Below, in pieces: positions 21,345-48,362 of a stretch of DNA of 64,000 nt (position 1 is the first letter of the stretch; every line of letters starts with the position of its first letter). Below the pieces are notes generated by a model, which did no database searches, had not been told where the DNA came from, and saw only the letters and a program-made list of their open reading frames with translations. The position numbers and the translations under genes were made by a program. Source of the stretch: a virus (Duplodnaviria > Caudoviricetes); the IMG/VR virus record IMGVR_UViG_3300025316_001101. One strand, written 5' to 3'.

Positions 21345-24300
21345 ATGGGACAAACTGCAAGAACTCAAACTGATTTATATGCTCACCTGCCGGATCAACA
21401 AACGCAAGACATATCTCCAGAAGATGTAAGAGATATTGTCGCTTCTTGGGGGTATGATAATAGTGGCACACCACCCAAACAAGCTATAAGTGCGGCCGAT
21501 AGAAAATTATATGCCACAGGCGGTACTACAGTTGCAGCCAAATGGGACAACGCTGATGGCGATTTGAAAAATGGCGATGGCAATTATTTTATTGCTACAT
21601 ACGGGTCCGGTGGATTTGGTACATATACAACTTTACCTGCTGGAACCAATCCTGCCGGTCTACTGTATGCAACAGATGTTAATGCAGCAAACACCAGCGC
21701 TAATCTTACTTGGATTCCCAACACAAATACTTTATCTACAACCAACCTTAACGTAACTGGCTTAACAGCAAACACTTTTATATTTGCTGGGGCAGGCGGA
21801 GCACTCACTTCTGTGGCTGATAGTCGTGTCACCTGGAACCCCATCTCTTACACACTCACTATTAACAATTCGTCTTTAGCTATTACTACTGGCAATCTTA
21901 CTGTTACAGGCGGAACCATATCTGGACAAACAGTATTTACTAATACTGCTGGCACTCCTTTCTCTCCGGGATCAGTTATTTTTGTAGGAAGCAGCGGATA
22001 TGCAACAGAAAATCATGATAACTTCCATTGGAATAACTCGGGTGGCAGCTATGGTTTAAGCATTGCCACTGGTAACCATCCAAATCCCTCTACTAATGCT
22101 TTAACCATAGGCTACATAGCTTCCTCCACTGTGCCCGCTGGAGCTACCAATCTGTTTACGGTTGCTCAAAATGGTGACATAACCTTTATGGGTGACATGA
22201 CTGGAATAGTTCGTGGCACATATTCTGCCGATAAAGACAAAACAACATTTTCTTGGAATGGCCAGTATTTAGGCATTGGAAATTTTGCTGCTGGTAATAG
22301 CCCTGTTTCTCCAGGCAAACAATTAGACATATTCTGGGACTGTAAAGATCCAGGAGATTGGCCTGATAACGACCTAAACGCCCCTTACTACGATGGCTCG
22401 AATGGTTGCTTGAACTCCGCTTCTGTGCGAATCACAGGCAATCGAGACGACCTTCTGCCCGTTGCAATAGAGGTAAAGAATCTTAACGATTGTGATCCAG
22501 CCGAAACTAGACCCGATGATGATATTGCTGATTGGGGAACCGCACATGAAGCCTTTGTCCGGGCTGGCATTTATTTATCTGTTGGTAGAAGTACGCATGG
22601 TGGCCAAATATTTGCCACAAAAGACTACAATGTAAACTACGGAATAGCAAATGGATTAAACATTAGACCAAATCTTGGGGGACAAGACGTAAGCATTTGT
22701 GCGGGTTACCCAGTAGATGGTGCTGCCTCTGAACCCACATTACTCGTTCACCATAATCAGTTTGTTGGAGTTAGAACCAACACTCCAAGTCAAGTCTTTT
22801 CGATAGGAGATTATGCTACCGCATATGGAGCCCCAGAATCTTATCTTACAAATAAACTAACTGTTGATTTAGATGGAAATCTTCTCACCATATCGTCAAT
22901 TACAATTGGTGATAAATCCTTTGCTGGAAACAAGACTGGATCTAGAATAGGTATCGGATATTCATACGTTTACGGTGGCGGCAAACTTCTAGATATTTAT
23001 CAACCACGGGATAATAGCATCAATGATGAAGGAGATCCTCGTTGGCCTTTAAGTGACGATAACCCTCCTGCATATGATGACGCCTGTGGGTGTTCGTCTT
23101 CTGCTTCGGTTAGAATAACTGGCAATAGAGAAGATAAAAAACCAGTTTTCTTGGAAATCAAAAATCTAAACAAGACAGACCCACTTAGCACCAGAGACAG
23201 CCATGACAAAACCATAGATCTACACACAACACAAGAAGCTTTTGTGCGTGCTGGTATCTACATGTCTGTCGGGATCGACACCGATGGCGGTCAATTATTT
23301 GCCACAATGGACACCAACACTCCCTACGGAATAGTTAATGGACTAAATATTAGACCAAATAAAGGCGCACAAGATGTCAGTATTTGTGCGGGCACATTAG
23401 TAGAAAGTGGTGGAGGAACCGAACCCACCCTAATGATTTACCATAATGGAGGAGATAGTCTTCTCAATGGAAATGTGGCCGTAAGAGGATTAGCTCCACC
23501 CCAACGATTTACAGTAAATCCAACATATTCATTTACTGTCAATCTCAATGGCGACACAACCACGCCTCACCTGTTAGATGATTTTGGAGTTATTTTAGGC
23601 ACTCCTGCGGGCAATGCTTCTATTTCACCAAATCGCCTTAGAACATTAACAGCCAATGACGGAAACACTGCTATTGGAGGCAAAACAGCATTGGATTGGC
23701 ACGTTCCAAATGCTGCTATTATGCGAAACACATCTCTGGCTACAAATAACATTTTGCCCGTTACTGAATCGCATTATTCAACAGAAAATTCCTACATTGC
23801 ATCTATTTGGAATCTCAGTGACTCACTTAACGATAGTAAAGCCTCAAATCACTTTACCATGAAAAATGGAGTAAATGCAAGCTGTAGTCACTGGAGTACA
23901 AATACCCGTATTAATCCAGACGAAAATCCAACCTCCTCTACTGGTTCACAAATGAAATGTGCTGGAGCTAGTTTAGACTTTGTACCAGTTAATCCCGATG
24001 ATAAAAAAACTTGGCTATATGCCACATTGCCTGACGCTGATATGATAGCAGCAGGTAACACCAACAGTGCAAGTTATACACATTGGTGTTGGTCTGTTAT
24101 GGGTTGGGCCTACATACCAACTAATAATGCCAGTTGTCCAATATTTTATCTTGGTGGCGTACCCACATATACTCCTCCGTGGGCCTATAGCAGTAAAATA
24201 TACGTAGATGTAGTAAATGGAAATCCAAGATACAATATGGAAAGTTATACATCTACTAGTAGCACAACACTTACAGCAGGATGGCATCATTTTTGTCTAT

Positions 24301-26009
24301 GTTATGGATTTGAAAAATGGATAGCTGGTTCGCCCAACTACGCCTATTATAATGCAGCATTATATGTTGATGGTGTAATAGTGTCAGATCCAACCAAAGT
24401 AAACTCGCAAGGCTTACCCGCATTACACACTGCTCTTGCGGGCGATTGGGGAACAGGGGCGGGTGCTGCTACGCACATAATCGTTGGCAATGGACCTATG
24501 GTTAACGGACCCGTTGACAACATGCTGTTTGAAGAATGGGCTATTTATATTGATAAAACCACCGGCCCTCCTAGTCATAACGGATACGACCTTGGTGTAT
24601 ATCCCATATCAAATGATTACATTGCTAGTTTTGCAGCTAATCCCACAGTGCAACATAGCCAATCAAAACAAGTGTATGATCCGTCCAACAGTAGAATTAT
24701 ATTGGGACCATATAGTGCTACTAATCCAAATGGCGGCACACTATCATTCAAACATCCCTATCCCATTCCTGGATTTGGTTTAATATCAACCATAACATTT
24801 GCCAATGCGGGTTCTGGCTATGCAGTCGGAAATTTACTTTCTGTTGTTGATGGCACGGGTGTGGGCGGATTTGTAAAAGTCGCTTCTATCAGCGGTGGTG
24901 GAGGAACCGGTCCCGTTACCAGCGTAACAATAGATCATGCAGGCATAAACTATTTGGCAGGAGCAACATACTCAACAACCGGTGGTGCAGAAACGGGCTG
25001 TCAAATTATATTGCCAAGCACTACTGCAACCACCATCAATTGGGACACTGGCGGCAATATTCAAACCATTACGCTAACCAGCAATACAACATTTGCCTTC
25101 ATCAATCCAAGTGATCCTCGTAACTCTACAACTACCGCTGCTAATCTACAAATTATTATAAAGCAAGATGGAACAGGTAGTAGACTAGTTACTTGGCCAA
25201 CCATTACTTGGGCTGGTGGATCGGCTCCAACGCTATCTACTACAGCCGGGGCTGTTGATATAATCGATTTGTTGTATGATGGAACAACTTACTATGGAAG
25301 TGGAAAATTAAGTTCTTCAAATTTACTATATGAAGATTTAACATTGACATCAACACATAAAGTGATTTTCAATGCCGCCACCGAATATATCAACAGTGCT
25401 AATACTGGATATTTAGATTTACATAGTGCGTCAGATTTACGCATCACAACCGGGGCAAACAAAACCCTGGCACTTCAAGTCCCTGTTTATAATGATTTAC
25501 CGCCATTCCCACTCAGCATGGCAAGAACAACCGGAAGCACTAAACCAGATTTAGTCGCCTTCAACGGGACCACATTATATCAACAGGAATTTGCATTAAA
25601 TGCTGAAGTACATGGAAACACAGAAATAACCCATGAATATAAAGAAGGAACAGATATTGAAGTTCACATTCATTGGGCTCCTGGAGGGACCAATAATAAT
25701 GCCCGTGGAGTAAAGTGGCAGTTTGATTATCAAATAGCAAATATAAATGGAACTTTTACTGCGGGTTCTACCCTGTCTGTAGACGTAACCTTGGATGCTA
25801 ATGTCACTGCTTTTACACACCACGTTTCTGCCATGACTGCAAAGATTCCCGGAAGTGGCGTAACCATTGGAACACATATCCTGTGGCGAATAAAACGAGT
25901 GGCCACTACACACGTTAACGGCGCACCATCAACCGCCCCATTTGGAATCGCATTGGGAATGCACGTGGAAATAGACACGATGGGTTCAAGAAATTGGTAT
26001 TCAAAATAA
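21345..26009 (+). CDS. large tail-fibre/adhesin-like structural protein
   Basis: 1554 aa, G/T/N-rich beta repeats, internal duplicated module, LamG/ConA-like LTAGWHHF..YVDG segment. Confidence 0.75.
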   Translation: MGQTARTQTDLYAHLPDQQTQDISPEDVRDIVASWGYDNSGTPPKQAISAADRKLYATGGTTVAAKWDNADGDLKNGDGNYFIATYGSGGFGTYTTLPAGTNPAGLLYATDVNAANTSANLTWIPNTNTLSTTNLNVTGLTANTFIFAGAGGALTSVADSRVTWNPISYTLTINNSSLAITTGNLTVTGGTISGQTVFTNTAGTPFSPGSVIFVGSSGYATENHDNFHWNNSGGSYGLSIATGNHPNPSTNALTIGYIASSTVPAGATNLFTVAQNGDITFMGDMTGIVRGTYSADKDKTTFSWNGQYLGIGNFAAGNSPVSPGKQLDIFWDCKDPGDWPDNDLNAPYYDGSNGCLNSASVRITGNRDDLLPVAIEVKNLNDCDPAETRPDDDIADWGTAHEAFVRAGIYLSVGRSTHGGQIFATKDYNVNYGIANGLNIRPNLGGQDVSICAGYPVDGAASEPTLLVHHNQFVGVRTNTPSQVFSIGDYATAYGAPESYLTNKLTVDLDGNLLTISSITIGDKSFAGNKTGSRIGIGYSYVYGGGKLLDIYQPRDNSINDEGDPRWPLSDDNPPAYDDACGCSSSASVRITGNREDKKPVFLEIKNLNKTDPLSTRDSHDKTIDLHTTQEAFVRAGIYMSVGIDTDGGQLFATMDTNTPYGIVNGLNIRPNKGAQDVSICAGTLVESGGGTEPTLMIYHNGGDSLLNGNVAVRGLAPPQRFTVNPTYSFTVNLNGDTTTPHLLDDFGVILGTPAGNASISPNRLRTLTANDGNTAIGGKTALDWHVPNAAIMRNTSLATNNILPVTESHYSTENSYIASIWNLSDSLNDSKASNHFTMKNGVNASCSHWSTNTRINPDENPTSSTGSQMKCAGASLDFVPVNPDDKKTWLYATLPDADMIAAGNTNSASYTHWCWSVMGWAYIPTNNASCPIFYLGGVPTYTPPWAYSSKIYVDVVNGNPRYNMESYTSTSSTTLTAGWHHFCLCYGFEKWIAGSPNYAYYNAALYVDGVIVSDPTKVNSQGLPALHTALAGDWGTGAGAATHIIVGNGPMVNGPVDNMLFEEWAIYIDKTTGPPSHNGYDLGVYPISNDYIASFAANPTVQHSQSKQVYDPSNSRIILGPYSATNPNGGTLSFKHPYPIPGFGLISTITFANAGSGYAVGNLLSVVDGTGVGGFVKVASISGGGGTGPVTSVTIDHAGINYLAGATYSTTGGAETGCQIILPSTTATTINWDTGGNIQTITLTSNTTFAFINPSDPRNSTTTAANLQIIIKQDGTGSRLVTWPTITWAGGSAPTLSTTAGAVDIIDLLYDGTTYYGSGKLSSSNLLYEDLTLTSTHKVIFNAATEYINSANTGYLDLHSASDLRITTGANKTLALQVPVYNDLPPFPLSMARTTGSTKPDLVAFNGTTLYQQEFALNAEVHGNTEITHEYKEGTDIEVHIHWAPGGTNNNARGVKWQFDYQIANINGTFTAGSTLSVDVTLDANVTAFTHHVSAMTAKIPGSGVTIGTHILWRIKRVATTHVNGAPSTAPFGIALGMHVEIDTMGSRNWYSK

Positions 26010-26653: not shown

Positions 26654-27685
26654 ATGGACAAATTAATCATATTAGATAAAATACAATTTGAATCTGCACG
26701 GGCATCGCAATTGGTGGATGTGCAGTGCCCTGAATGCAGTAAAAAGTTTCAAAGAAGAAAGAACTACATCAAAAGATCCAACAGTAGTTTCTGCTCACAT
26801 GAATGTGCTAACAAGCATAGAAGCAACAAAATAAAAATTTACTGCAAACTATGCGGCAAAGAAATTATGTTATACCCCAAGCGAATAAAAGCGAACGGTA
26901 ATTTTTGCTCGCAATCATGTATTGCTAAATTCTATCAATTACGCAACCCAAATCCACGAACCATAAACCCCATTACAAAATCGCAATATGACAAACTAAA
27001 AACACCAATGAATCTTGACGAATTTAACATATTGAAAGGCAATGATCCCGTGCCACTTGTGTGCATTGCTTGCTACAAACCATTCACACAAAAGAAACAA
27101 CTTATATGCAGAGCCATCGAACAATACTCCAATGTTGGCTATTGTTCCAGACGATGTTGCAATGCCGATAAAAGCACATTAGTGCAAATTAATTGCGAAG
27201 AATGCAATAAAAAAATATTAAAATACCCAAGCCAAATCATAAAAAACAAACACTGCTTTTGTTCTTACACATGTGCTGCAAAATTTAGAAATAAAAACAA
27301 AACAACTGGATGCCGCAGATCAAAACTAGAAGCCTTTTTAGAAGCCGAAATAAAAAGCCGCTACCCGTCGCTCAATATGGTTTGTAATGAAGTACACCTT
27401 CTTGGTGGATTAGAACTAGATTTCTATTTCCCCGATTTGAAATTAGGAATAGAATTAAATGGTATAACTCATTACGAACCGATTTATGGCATAGATCGCC
27501 TTACTCGCTCAAAAGACAGCGATAAGAGAAAAATGATTTTGTGTTATGAAAAAGGAATTGAATTAGCAGTAATTGATACATCGTCTGCTAAAAACATGAC
27601 TGTTAAAAATGGAGAAAAATTTTGGAATGAAGTAAATAACATTTTATCGCCATTAATAAAAACAGCCACGTCATGTCGCACATGA
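26654..27685 (+). CDS. putative homing endonuclease (Zn-finger repeats + Vsr/DUF559-like nuclease)
   Basis: repeated C..C/FCS..C units; ELDFYFPDLKLGIELNG..HY. Confidence 0.8.
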   Translation: MDKLIILDKIQFESARASQLVDVQCPECSKKFQRRKNYIKRSNSSFCSHECANKHRSNKIKIYCKLCGKEIMLYPKRIKANGNFCSQSCIAKFYQLRNPNPRTINPITKSQYDKLKTPMNLDEFNILKGNDPVPLVCIACYKPFTQKKQLICRAIEQYSNVGYCSRRCCNADKSTLVQINCEECNKKILKYPSQIIKNKHCFCSYTCAAKFRNKNKTTGCRRSKLEAFLEAEIKSRYPSLNMVCNEVHLLGGLELDFYFPDLKLGIELNGITHYEPIYGIDRLTRSKDSDKRKMILCYEKGIELAVIDTSSAKNMTVKNGEKFWNEVNNILSPLIKTATSCRT

Positions 27686-27694
27686 CGTGGCTGT
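27662..27694. terminator. 15-bp perfect hairpin between convergent genes
   Basis: ACAGCCACGTCATGT-CGC-ACATGACGTGGCTGT. Confidence 0.65.
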
Positions 27695-27706
27695 TCATTT
27701 CGACTA

Positions 27707-28479
27707 TTACAAAATCAACCTCAATTCACCCTTCATAACAGCCTTAATGTTACTAGTCTTCTTGCCAGTATTATGGTCTGTCACTCTGGAATCAATGAAA
27801 TTATATGTTCTGGTCTTATCTCCTCTACCAGCGTTTGCAAGTGATTGCTTGCGATTGGCATCGTATTTAGCAGCCATCTCTTTCAATCGTTTCTCATTTA
27901 CACGGGCTGTGATAATTCGCAACGCATGTTTGCGATTCTGGTGTTGATCACGTCCATCGATGACAACCGTGATGCCGGTTGGCTTGTGTTTAATACGAAC
28001 GCAAGATGCCGTCTTTTGGCGATGCTGTCCACCGGGGCCAGTGCCTATCATAGTGGTTACTTCCAATTCTGAATCTGGCAATGGCATACAATCCTGCTCT
28101 GGTGGCAAAGGAAGAACCGCTACTGCTACTACGCTAGTATGCCTTCTACCCTTGGTTTCTGTAGGCGGCACCCTCTGACAGATGTGCTTGCCAGATTCGT
28201 TCTTGAAACTTTTACCAATACCTTTGCCAGACATTTGCACTATTTTATGCCCAAATGAAGAATGTAAAATCTCTGCTTTGAAATTAAGAGACTGAACATA
28301 CCTAGCATACATGACAAGAAGCTCGTCCACGAATATTTTTGAGTCCTCTCCTCCTTCGCCAAATTGTATTTCAACGACGATCTCATGGGCACTGTCTAAG
28401 CTAAAGACAGCCCGGCAATCCCTTCAATTCTGCTTGTGGTCTTTCATTGCTAAAGTAACCTCCGATTGTGCTTGCTCAT
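27707..28479 (-). CDS. class I peptide chain release factor, RF1-type, lacking most of domain 1; predicted expression via two +1 frameshifts
   Basis: VPPT (PxT), RRHTS, GPGGQ, RTYNF..RVTDH; RF homology (EIVVEIQFGEGGED) continues upstream of track start 28330; SD-ATG at 28479 joins by CTT-TAG-C slips at 28449-28455 and 28400-28406 (256 aa). Confidence 0.88.
28400..28406 (-). promoter_or_regulatory. +1 programmed frameshift site 2
   Basis: CCG GGC TGT CTT TAG C; +1 enters RF frame. Confidence 0.7.
28449..28463 (-). promoter_or_regulatory. +1 programmed frameshift site 1
   Basis: CGG AGG TTA CTT TAG C: internal SD GGAGG 3 nt before CTT-stop-C, as in prfB. Confidence 0.78.
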
Positions 28480-28505
28480 GGTTTTTCTCCTTTTGGTTAG
28501 AGCAA

Positions 28506-28544
28506 ATAAAAAGCCCACCTTCTGCGCAGCAGAAGGTGGGCTTG
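28506..28544 (-). terminator. terminator after HNH gene
   Basis: AAGCCCACCTTCTGC-GCA-GCAGAAGGTGGGCTT plus T-run on minus strand. Confidence 0.8.
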
Positions 28545-28548
28545 GGTT

Positions 28549-29220
28549 TCAGCTATCACTCGGCATATCATTTTCTAAAGGGACTTCCCAATACATTTCT
28601 GATACTACCGCATCAAGATCTGTGATCCAGGTTTTCCAAGAACTCAGAATCTTGCCATTTGTCTTGAACAATTCAAACCGAGGCTTGAATGGTTCACGCA
28701 TCAGCTTCATGTGTGCCTGCTGCGGAGTACGATTGTCCTTGCGTTGATTGCAACGAATGCAACTAACAACACAGTTCTTCCAAGTCGTTTCTCCCCCGTG
28801 AGAGCGAGGAGTGATATGGTCGATGGTCAATTCTTCCGTACCCGGCTTTGAACCGCAGTATTGACAAGTGTAATCGTCTCGACGATGAATTGCACGCCGA
28901 GAAAACTTCACACGCTGATTTGGCAGCTTGTTGAAACTAGTCAATAATACGACTTCAGGCACACGATATGCTTCACGCACACCATGCAGAGCCAGTTCGC
29001 CCTCTTGCGGACGCAACTTACTCCAATCTTCCCAAGTGTAAGTCTGGAAGTTGGCAAACGGATCAATGATCCTAGCTTCTGGCTCTCCATCGTCCTCACG
29101 AAATAGCAATCCCATCGCCTCTTTAACCGTATCAATACGGTGAGGTGCCCAGGACTTGTTCAACACAAGTACCGGCCGTTGCAGTGATCGTGAATTCTTT
29201 CGAGCTAAAGTTACTGTCAT
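28549..29220 (-). CDS. HNH endonuclease (McrA-like)
   Basis: VLVLN, RD.YTCQYCG, TIDHI.PRS.GG..TW.N.V.SC..CN..K. Confidence 0.9.
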   Translation of the reverse strand: MTVTLARKNSRSLQRPVLVLNKSWAPHRIDTVKEAMGLLFREDDGEPEARIIDPFANFQTYTWEDWSKLRPQEGELALHGVREAYRVPEVVLLTSFNKLPNQRVKFSRRAIHRRDDYTCQYCGSKPGTEELTIDHITPRSHGGETTWKNCVVSCIRCNQRKDNRTPQQAHMKLMREPFKPRFELFKTNGKILSSWKTWITDLDAVVSEMYWEVPLENDMPSDS

Positions 29221-29292
29221 GATCTTTCTCCTTCCATCTTATTTACACCTAGTATCCTCCTTTTACCTGTCCATCGGTGCTTAGTGAACAAG

Positions 29293-29365
29293 TAGCGGCG
29301 GGTGGAGTTGAACCACCTTAAACTCGCTTATGAAACGAGCCCCTAAACCGTTCGGGCACGCCGCC
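29293..29365 (-). tRNA. tRNA-Met(CAT) (Ile2 not excluded)
   Basis: cloverleaf, loop TT-CAT-AA. Confidence 0.85.
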
Positions 29366-29565
29366 ATATTATTTGGTTATATTGTCGCCTTCGATTTTAT
29401 CAATCGAAAGTTTGTATAGTTCTGGAAAGAATCTATGAAGCCACGGATATGGCCCAGCCTTTCCAGCACGGATACAAAACAAACACAGGCAACCACTTTC
29501 ATGTTTTGAATCATTCATAATCATGCTTTTTATTATACTACAAGTCATTCATCTTGTAAAGGTAT

Positions 29566-29832
29566 TTATTGACTCCACACTCGATAAATTCCCTTCAATT
29601 CTTTTCTCGTCTGACATCTCGGTGTCGCTTGCTCACCTAAAATGCCATCTATCACCTCTGCCAACTCGGCTAATCCACTGTTTCTATTAAGATCCTCCTG
29701 TGTTAATAATAAAGTGTTGGCCGAATCTATAAAGTCAAGAAACTGCTGATGTATCGCTTCCGGCACCTCTATGACTTTAGTCTTTTTATCGCAAGGGAAG
29801 ATGCTTAGTAACTGGATCAATTTTGTCCACAT
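29566..29832 (-). CDS. hypothetical protein
   Basis: ORF overlapping Pth2 end. Confidence 0.5.
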   Translation of the reverse strand: MWTKLIQLLSIFPCDKKTKVIEVPEAIHQQFLDFIDSANTLLLTQEDLNRNSGLAELAEVIDGILGEQATPRCQTRKELKGIYRVWSQ

Positions 29833-30190
29833 AGTCTGGTCCTATCGCCAAAGCTGTCGCCGTTGGCACTCCGCTAAATTCCGTCCTACCACTGTCAATG
29901 ATTAAATGAGTTTCCAGGCCAGCTTCTTTAGCCTTTAATTCCAAAGCTTTTAACTCTTCCTCATTTTCTACCTGACAAACAACCTTGGCATAGGATGCAG
30001 CAATCCAGTCCTGTTGGGCTGGCGTAAGCTTCACTATGAATTCATCTTTTTGATTTGCTAGAATCTGTGCCTGAATTTGCCTACCGATAAACGCACAAGC
30101 GGCGTGAGCCGCTTGTGCGTCTTCCTTACCTCGGCGCACTTTCAGATCACGTCGTACCACTATCACTTGTTTTGTATCTTTTTCGCTCAT
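29786..30190 (-). CDS. peptidyl-tRNA hydrolase type 2 (Pth2)
   Basis: VIVVRRDL..R.GK..AQAAHA, KVV, DSGRTE, IGP. Confidence 0.92.
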   Translation of the reverse strand: MSEKDTKQVIVVRRDLKVRRGKEDAQAAHAACAFIGRQIQAQILANQKDEFIVKLTPAQQDWIAASYAKVVCQVENEEELKALELKAKEAGLETHLIIDSGRTEFSGVPTATALAIGPDYVDKIDPVTKHLPLR

Positions 30191-48288: not shown

Positions 48289-48362
48289 TAGGTCACGTGG
48301 GAATCGAACCCACATTTACACTTTTAGAGAGTGTTGCTCTGAGCCAATTGAACTAGTGACCC
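48289..48362 (-). tRNA. amber suppressor tRNA (anticodon CTA)
   Basis: ACACT-CTCTAAA-AGTGT, intact D/T arms, G1.U72, A73. Confidence 0.88.

Follow-up and report, generated by a model that had tools for sequence, protein, structure and literature searches.

A gene of a large freshwater phage, coding for a release factor (RF) of RF1 type, appears to be gated by two prfB-type +1 frameshift sites in series, both with UAG as the stop codon. The gene lies on the minus strand of a 64-kb stretch of DNA (in the following, the window) from the 259-kb IMG/VR virus record IMGVR_UViG_3300025316_001101 (Caudoviricetes; G000; ~50% complete). The CUU-UGA-C +1 frameshift of prfB is the textbook case of a translation factor that senses its own activity, and programmed +1 frameshifting of this type is considered exclusive to RF2. 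By analogy with prfB, we consider it probable (roughly 0.7) that synthesis of the phage factor takes two successive programmed +1 frameshifts, with the leader acting as a sensor of UAG termination. Judged by sequence, the device is a real, conserved recoding gate, and the predicted doubled UAG gate on an RF1-type phage factor is a new form of the prfB principle.

The layout of the gene can be read directly from the DNA (Table 1) and matches a preliminary description of this locus in full: two CTT-TAG-C sites, each with a +1 continuation, at the positions given there, and a combined product of 256 aa through both shifts. The start codon is preceded by a Shine-Dalgarno (SD) sequence, and relatives carry both at the equivalent place. 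After nine codons, the first site follows in the context CGGAGG-TTA-CTT-TAG-C; the GGAGG described as lying exactly 3 nt upstream of this site is indeed there, as part of the CGGAGG at 28464-28459. At the second site, reached through 16 codons in the +1 frame, the SD position holds only a weak G-run (CCGGGC, 3/6 SD matches). Leaders are basic, rich in lysine and arginine, and 5–25 codons long in all relatives.

Why would two shifts be required? The RF frame is closed upstream by a TGA (28426-28424) and, once open, offers no ATG, GTG or TTG ahead of GTG 28330. That GTG lies downstream of the conserved GEGGEDS decoding tip and was rejected as a start, as was ATG 28447, which is in the RF frame but meets the TGA after 6 codons. 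A single –1 (that is, +2) shift is ruled out too: where frame 0 terminates, the RF frame has yet to open, the same TGA still lying further downstream. An alternative genetic code can be discarded as well. Under code 11, open reading frames (ORFs) of at least 100 aa, counted from stop to stop, cover 0.889 of the genome, and reading TAG as sense extends this coverage no more than does reading TGA or TAA as sense; the standard code fits all six genomes examined, namely G000 and five relatives. Within the leader, TAG as sense is of no help, since TGA follows in both frames, one codon on in frame 0 and five codons on in the middle frame. Thus, no single shift, alternative start or alternative code gives the conserved protein, which needs either two +1 events or one long hop. 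The earlier claim that the RF frame can only be entered by two +1 shifts at prfB-style sites thereby withstood the search for another start or an upstream opening. Put in terms of prfB, a cassette with an early in-frame stop, the remainder of the gene in the +1 frame and no alternative start is present twice in series, and slippery CUU-U, stop and C are found at both 28455-28449 and 28406-28400.

To what extent is this gate shared by related genes? The family was searched in phage records, IMG/VR, metagenomes and genomes, and the leader was parsed in 52 dereplicated genes. With [C/G]TT-T-stop as the definition of a shift site, 20 of these genes have two sites and 32 have one, i.e. paired sites in both required frames recur in 19 dereplicated relatives besides the window gene. 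Over two-site and single-site genes together, the slippery codon is CTT at 68 of 72 positions and GTT at the remaining 4 (e.g. GGGGG-TTA-GTT-TAG-C); GTT is seen at the first site of L041 and in L051, L053 and L082. A C follows the stop at 17/20 first and 16/20 second sites (33/40). An SD-like hexamer (at least 5/6 matches) stands exactly 3 nt upstream of 16/20 first sites, against a background of 1.5% (P ~5e-26), and at the same distance from 6/20 second sites and 6/32 single sites. The full motif, [ACG]GG[AG]GG-N3-[CG]TT-T-stop, is unique to site 1 when both strands of the 259-kb genome are searched, and in two related genomes (G004 and G005) all of its occurrences fall in the RF leader; the plain heptamer CTTTAGC is found 13 times on both strands of the window. 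In a phylogenetic tree, the short-RF family forms a clade with 100% support, separate from full-length RF1. A shift is needed by all 49 family members on the tree, along which the proximal stop changed at least 8 times and the number of sites at least 11 times.

Both motifs and their frames, for which an alignment of homologues had been proposed as a check, are conserved. The site 1 heptamer is invariant in relatives of 69, 60 and 51% identity. The first of these, L273, has two heptamers identical to those of the window gene, with CGGAGG-TTA ahead of site 1 and CCGGGC-TGT ahead of site 2; its segments 0 and 1 show indels of 3 and 6 nt, respectively. For the relatives of 60 and 51% identity, the segment 0/segment 1 indels are +9/–3 and 0/–3. 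Segment 1 thus differs by –6, –3 and –3 nt from the three relatives, and leader indels are multiples of 3 throughout. Contigs from three other freshwater/lake studies span both sites without an indel, their one substitution lying outside both sites, at 28392, and the family alignment of 38 sequences contains 26 invariant columns, GGQ among them. This conservation, together with the indel-free independent contigs, argues strongly against an assembly error or a pseudogene. No match to 27000-29500 was returned by Megablast in phage records. The closest relative, P0005, is 73% identical. A scan of genome contigs retrieved mostly ordinary full-length RF1 and only three family members, located in contigs of metagenome-assembled genomes.

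Some relatives depart from this scheme. L021 (52% identity; 1468-1500) is without a +1 site: an ATG stands in the RF frame, and TGA follows after four codons (MKRR-stop-KGEV...), which suggests a readthrough variant of the gate. In L062, L068 and L081, three genes from metagenomes that come on top of the 52 and belong to a more distant subgroup, a CTT-T-stop is located 28–43 codons into the gene, inside domain 2 and past the GEGG tip. Their sequences suggest that short RF genes acquired frameshift gates at more than one position. As to how sites are gained or lost, the single-site relative L023/L024 reads AAC-CGG-AGG and then directly AAT-GAG where the window gene has 28449-28464. Relative to it, the first site of the window looks like a 10-nt insert, TTACTTTAGC, which hints at a route of site gain or loss.

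What kind of protein lies behind the gate? As predicted from sequence and model, it is an RF1-derived class-I release factor made up of domains 2–4, without domain 1, and not a PrfH. Pfam detects RF-1 and part of PCRF, namely its C-terminal half (the match starts at profile position 99). The NCBIfam models give 219 bits for RF1, 153 for RF2, 65 for PrfH and 20 for ArfB, all below the equivalog cut-offs (for RF1, 219 and 211 bits against 400 and 423 with NF001859 and TIGR00019), and a sequence search of the PDB yields 158 bits for RF1, 105 for RF2 and 38 for PrfH. An AlphaFold model built from 38 family sequences is confident throughout (predicted local distance difference test, 92) and superimposes on ribosome-bound RF1 with a template modelling (TM) score of 0.86–0.88 and a root-mean-square deviation of ~2.5 Å, RF1 being the top match of the fold search. 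The RF1 type assigned in the preliminary description is hence borne out by profiles, PDB sequences and fold alike. So is the absence of most of domain 1: the alignment spans residues 105-335 of Thermus thermophilus RF1 only, so that domain 1 is missing. Over domains 2–4, RF1 is the closest match in both sequence and fold, sharing GGQ, the PxT-type loop and the decoding contacts of Gln, His and Thr. The phage factor lacks the ~100 N-terminal residues (domain 1, with its contact to RF3 and L11) of the ~360-aa full RF1, scores below the equivalog cut-offs, forms its own clade and has decoding changes of its own. The decoding loop, QRVPPTETKGRRHTS, aligns to QRVPVTETQGRIHTS of T. thermophilus RF1; of the decoding residues, it retains Gln, the PxT Thr and the contacts made by His and Thr. 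The tip of RF1 helix 5 is responsible for reading the first stop-codon base; here, its Glu has changed to Asp, the tip being conserved across the family as GEGGxDS, and the equivalent of Ile192 is Arg, as in RF2. The SPF motif of RF2 is absent, its place being taken by PPT.

Two other small factors were considered. In size and in lacking domain 1, the phage protein resembles PrfH, and to this extent the earlier label ‘PrfH-like’ is apt. However, the PrfH model (TIGR03072) scores 65 bits against a cut-off of 166.65, PrfH in the PDB reaches 38 bits compared to 158 for RF1, and the stop-decoding motif is kept in the phage factor. PrfH (RF-H) pairs with RtcB, and no match to RtcB (PF01139) was found in the 259-kb record, itself only ~50% complete. 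The RF1 scores, the retained decoding motif and this lack of RtcB therefore speak for descent from RF1 rather than for a PrfH. ArfB, which consists of a GGQ domain and a C-terminal tail and has no decoding domain, was rejected at 20 bits against a cut-off of 100 (NF006718); in the phage factor, decoding domains 2 and 4 are present.

The gate has several features in common with prfB: an early in-frame stop within a class-I RF gene, slippery CUU-U, a C behind the stop and, at site 1, an SD-like element placed exactly 3 nt before the slippery codon. As in prfB, the gene continues in the +1 frame, and slow termination would presumably favour slipping. The gate differs in that the protein is of RF1 type without domain 1, the stop is UAG and two sites are arranged in series; across the family, UAG, UGA or UAA is used, many sites are without SD, the genes are phage-borne, and the cassette sits just before domain 2 (in some relatives inside it) rather than in domain 1. 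In a 2025 survey, TAG was absent from all 8,164 prfB motifs, and no programmed frameshift was seen in prfA (PMC12421855); a 2016 review called an RF1/UAG counterpart of prfB unknown (PMC5009743). Neither a double nor a UAG-based RF cassette was found in this literature (PMC12421855, PMC5009743), in agreement with the preliminary statement that none was known. The 2016 review also mentions, citing its reference 349, an eRF1-type gene of giant amoeba viruses (Mimiviridae) that reportedly requires stop-codon readthrough and a separate frameshift (PMC5009743). This, too, is a viral termination-factor gene needing two recoding events, but it involves a eukaryotic/archaeal eRF1 fold unrelated to that of the phage factor, a eukaryotic host and one readthrough plus one frameshift instead of two prfB-type sites. 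Among phages with recoded genomes, TAG-recoded Lak and Agate phages encode RF2 and TGA-recoded Jade phages encode RF1 (bioRxiv 10.1101/2021.08.26.457843). Theirs, like ours, are phage class-I RF genes near suppressor transfer RNAs (tRNAs) and other translation genes, yet alternative codes are used there and the standard code here; the word ‘frameshift’ has 0 occurrences in the text of that study.

How might the gate operate? Ribosomes would initiate at ATG 28479 and translate 9 codons, placing peptidyl-tRNA-Leu on CUU and UAG in the A site, with GGAGG pairing to the anti-SD of 16S rRNA 3 nt upstream, as in prfB. If a factor read UAG quickly, a 9-residue peptide would be released; if reading were slow, the tRNA would re-pair on UUU and decoding would resume at AGC. 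Sixteen codons on, the second CUU-UAG-C, without a strong SD, would repeat the test, and only ribosomes that slip twice would enter the RF frame. That slipping occurs and competes with termination is assumed here by analogy with prfB. Since two slips are required, output would be roughly multiplicative: the efficiencies of the two frameshifts would combine as a product, and each would drop as UAG-termination activity rises. The net effect would be a steep, low-leak sensor, with the factor being made only when the infected cell is short of amber termination capacity.

Several points weigh against this scheme or against parts of it. As site 2 is without SD, its efficiency may be low. The two tRNA(CUA) genes of the record (see below), if active, would lead to readthrough of the gate UAGs into nearby stops and thereby confound a simple RF1 sensor. 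The peptide encoded by the middle segment is poorly conserved, and counts of synonymous to non-synonymous changes, from few comparable pairs, do not single out the predicted frame (9:32, versus 5:31 and 3:33), so that the case for translation of this segment is built on frame, openness and indel phase. The stops of the gates vary under a constant decoding motif. In the 20 two-site leaders, we find TAG/TAG (10), TAG/TGA (5), TGA/TGA (2), TAA/TAG (2) and TAA/TGA (1), and 22 of the 32 single-site genes use TGA, a codon that an RF1-type factor should not read. Close relatives swap stops, a 70%-identical one having a single CTT-TGA-C. Throughout, the motif QR[VI]PPTE..GR[RK][HQ]TS remains the same for all gate stop types; the identical QRVPPTERNGRRQTS accompanies TGA/TGA, TAG/TAG and TAA/TAG two-site leaders as well as a single TGA site, and no link between gate stop and decoding residues was detected across the family. 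The match between UAG gates and PxT specificity put forward in the preliminary description fits this gene on paper, and the squared negative feedback on UAG that it proposed is conceivable here. Given that stop identity varies at a fixed decoding motif, neither extends to the family as a rule. For the window gene, self-feedback of the factor on its UAG gates is plausible; more generally, host RF1 and RF2 pools may be what the gates read, mixed leaders then serving as AND gates, or the factor may have a broader specificity than is evident from its motif.

Sensing of the host is the stronger of these two options, even though we regard it as clearly less probable than the UAG sensor above. The gates would then report on the host RF pool, RF1 at UAG here and RF2 at UGA in relatives, rather than on the factor's own activity; host or leakiness would decide which stop is used, and the specificity of the phage factor would be irrelevant. 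The free stop identity under a fixed decoding motif, the 70%-identical relative with its single TGA and the stop changes on the tree all suit this option, as does the finding that each of six phage genomes has this one RF gene only; with mixed TAG/TGA and TAA/TGA leaders, RF1 and RF2 would be probed one after the other. On the other hand, both stops of the window gene are RF1-readable, which makes feedback unavoidable if the factor is active, and 15/20 first sites are TAG, a bias toward RF1-readable stops. Less likely still is that the short, domain-1-less clade reads UAA, UAG and UGA alike. Any gate stop would then be autoregulatory, and a tight single or double gate would exist because the factor is toxic and its level must be kept minimal. 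The identical motif behind every stop type and the single RF gene per phage would be expected in this case too, and the clade carries changes at decoding positions (PPT, the Glu-to-Asp tip, Arg at Ile192 and, in many members, His to Gln). There is precedent in RF2, which single substitutions turn omnipotent, such variants being toxic (PMC7530605); PDB 8p16 is among our fold matches. Nonetheless, the Thr of PxT and Gln181, through which RF1 accepts only A as the second base, are still present. We know of no natural omnipotent bacterial-type RF.

The remaining alternatives concern the route from the start codon to the RF frame and turn largely on the middle segment. In the 120 nt preceding the proximal site, we counted 24 [C/G]TTT-stop motifs in total, 19 of which lie at a distance of 1 mod 3 from that site (P = 5e-6 compared to one third). 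The spacing ranges from 34 to 70 nt, and the intermediate frame is open in all 19 correctly framed pairs. It is rather improbable that only site 2 is used, with translation starting at one of two TTG codons (28427-28425, 28412-28410) and site 1 belonging to a separate upstream ORF of 9 codons. Many relatives are indeed single-site and the middle segment contains these two in-frame TTG codons, but neither has a usable SD, the sole strong SD with an ATG past the upstream terminator is that at 28479, and no start codon (ATG, GTG or TTG) is present in the middle segment of either L002 or L003. Moreover, it is site 1, invariant in relatives, that shows the best prfB-like SD geometry. Even less credible is a long hop, in which peptidyl-tRNA-Leu would leave CUU 28455 and land ~50 nt on at site 2, the middle remaining untranslated. 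Matched CUU codons 49 nt apart, with a stop directly after the take-off codon, superficially resemble the bypass in T4 gene 60. Here, however, landing on CUU returns a UAG to the A site, and neither the 1 mod 3 spacing (19/24) with its open frame nor indels in multiples of 3 are expected of a hop. Most relatives are single-site, and in place of a take-off hairpin, the leader RNA folds no better than shuffled sequences (z = +0.97). Finally, the public gene call (P0002) shortens the window gene from 256 to 201 aa, as for a broken gene. That the gene is a decaying pseudogene or an assembly artefact is nevertheless the least probable of all readings, considering a two-site design in 20 diverged genes, a single site in 32 more, invariant columns that include GGQ, independent assemblies free of indels and a structural model that is confident throughout. 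Two successive +1 shifts remain the preferred route.

If correct, this extends the prfB-type device to an RF1-type factor, to any stop codon and to serial doubling, which should give a multiplicative, low-leak response. It would also mean that large phages using the standard code carry a gated termination factor beside tRNAs, suppressor tRNAs, transfer-messenger RNA (tmRNA) and peptidyl-tRNA hydrolase, opening the control of termination in infected cells to direct tests. As gene callers shorten such genes, systematic mis-annotation results; the label given by JGI to relatives is ‘peptide chain release factor 1’. By analogy with prfB, work on genetic-code expansion might harness the leaders as compact devices that report how efficient termination at UAG or UGA is.

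Table 1. Features of the release factor gene and its surroundings. Positions refer to the window unless prefixed with G000 (whole record).
Feature	Position	Strand	Remarks
SD sequence AAGGAG, initiation	28487..28492	-	read directly; 7-nt spacer to ATG
Start codon ATG	28479-28477	-	
Leader segment 0, MSKHNRRLL	28453..28479	-	ATG + 8 codons, frame 0; last codon is the slippery CTT
Internal SD-like CGGAGG	28459..28464	-	exactly 3 nt before first CTT; prfB geometry
Frameshift site 1, CTT-TAG-C	28449..28455	-	frame-0 stop TAG 28452-28450
Leader segment 1, SNERPQAELKGLPGCL	28404..28451	-	16 codons, +1 frame, open
Frameshift site 2, TGT-CTT-TAG-C	28400..28406	-	stop TAG 28403-28401
RF frame, RF1 domains 2–4	27707..28402	-	231 codons, then TAA 27709-27707
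GEGGEDS, equivalent of RF1 helix-5 tip (GGxE)	28340..28360	-	by alignment to T. thermophilus RF1; Glu to Asp
Decoding loop QRVPPTETKGRRHTS	28133..28177	-	PxT motif as PPT; by alignment to RF1
GGQ catalytic motif	28025..28033	-	invariant in 38-sequence family alignment
Terminator-like hairpin, 15 bp + T-run	28511..28543	-	between upstream HNH gene and RF gene
Terminator-like hairpin, 17 bp + T-run	27660..27696	-	directly 3′ of RF stop codon
HNH endonuclease gene	28549-29220	-	between PTH2 and RF genes
PTH2-type peptidyl-tRNA hydrolase	29786-30190	-	Pfam, 102 bits; two genes upstream of RF
tRNA, anticodon CUA	48289-48362	-	good cloverleaf
Second tRNA, anticodon CUA	G000:183724-183798		good cloverleaf; outside window
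tmRNA, tag ANTFAVAA	G000:84822-85173		outside window

The genomic surroundings of the gene are rich in translation functions. The window contains 28 tRNA genes, all on the minus strand (29292-63311), and the whole record 48 tRNA predictions, a few of them with odd anticodons. Two of the tRNAs have the anticodon CUA (Table 1), and about one fifth of the long ORFs of G000 end in TAG. Suppressor tRNAs (CUA, UUA or UCA) are present in 4 of six related huge-phage genomes. Across the six whole genomes, no clean rule connects gate stop and suppressor: TAG gates and CUA suppressors coincide in three genomes, but the TAG gate of G003 is not accompanied by any suppressor, the UCA suppressor of G005 goes with no TGA gate, and a UUA suppressor is combined with TGA/TGA gates in G004. 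From the leader sequence, active suppressors in G000 would read both gate UAGs through into the nearby TGAs and thus lower RF synthesis, suggesting a possible antagonism between suppressor and RF. UAG gates and the two amber suppressors could even be mutually inhibitory, the suppressor reading the gates through and the factor competing with the suppressor, and so form a switch between UAG as stop and UAG as sense.

No convincing sigma-70-like promoter was seen between the upstream terminator and the RF start, and folding of the leader against shuffled sequences revealed no significant stimulatory RNA structure. The second UAG falls into the 7-nt loop of a small hairpin, CUGUCU/AGACAG (28392-28410, minus strand), which is present in both the minimum free energy and the centroid fold and is not significant. 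The HNH gene upstream of the RF gene recurs in L273 and P0005. On the opposite strand near the RF gene, a 1554-aa ORF (21345-26009, plus strand) has the repetitive make-up, rich in glycine and threonine, of a tail fibre. Elsewhere in the record, the anticodon loop is odd in some tRNA-like genes predicted by ARAGORN (G000:139350-139443 and 188112-188336), one having the four-base ‘cttg’ and two the two-base ‘ca’; these may be artefacts or unusual tRNAs.

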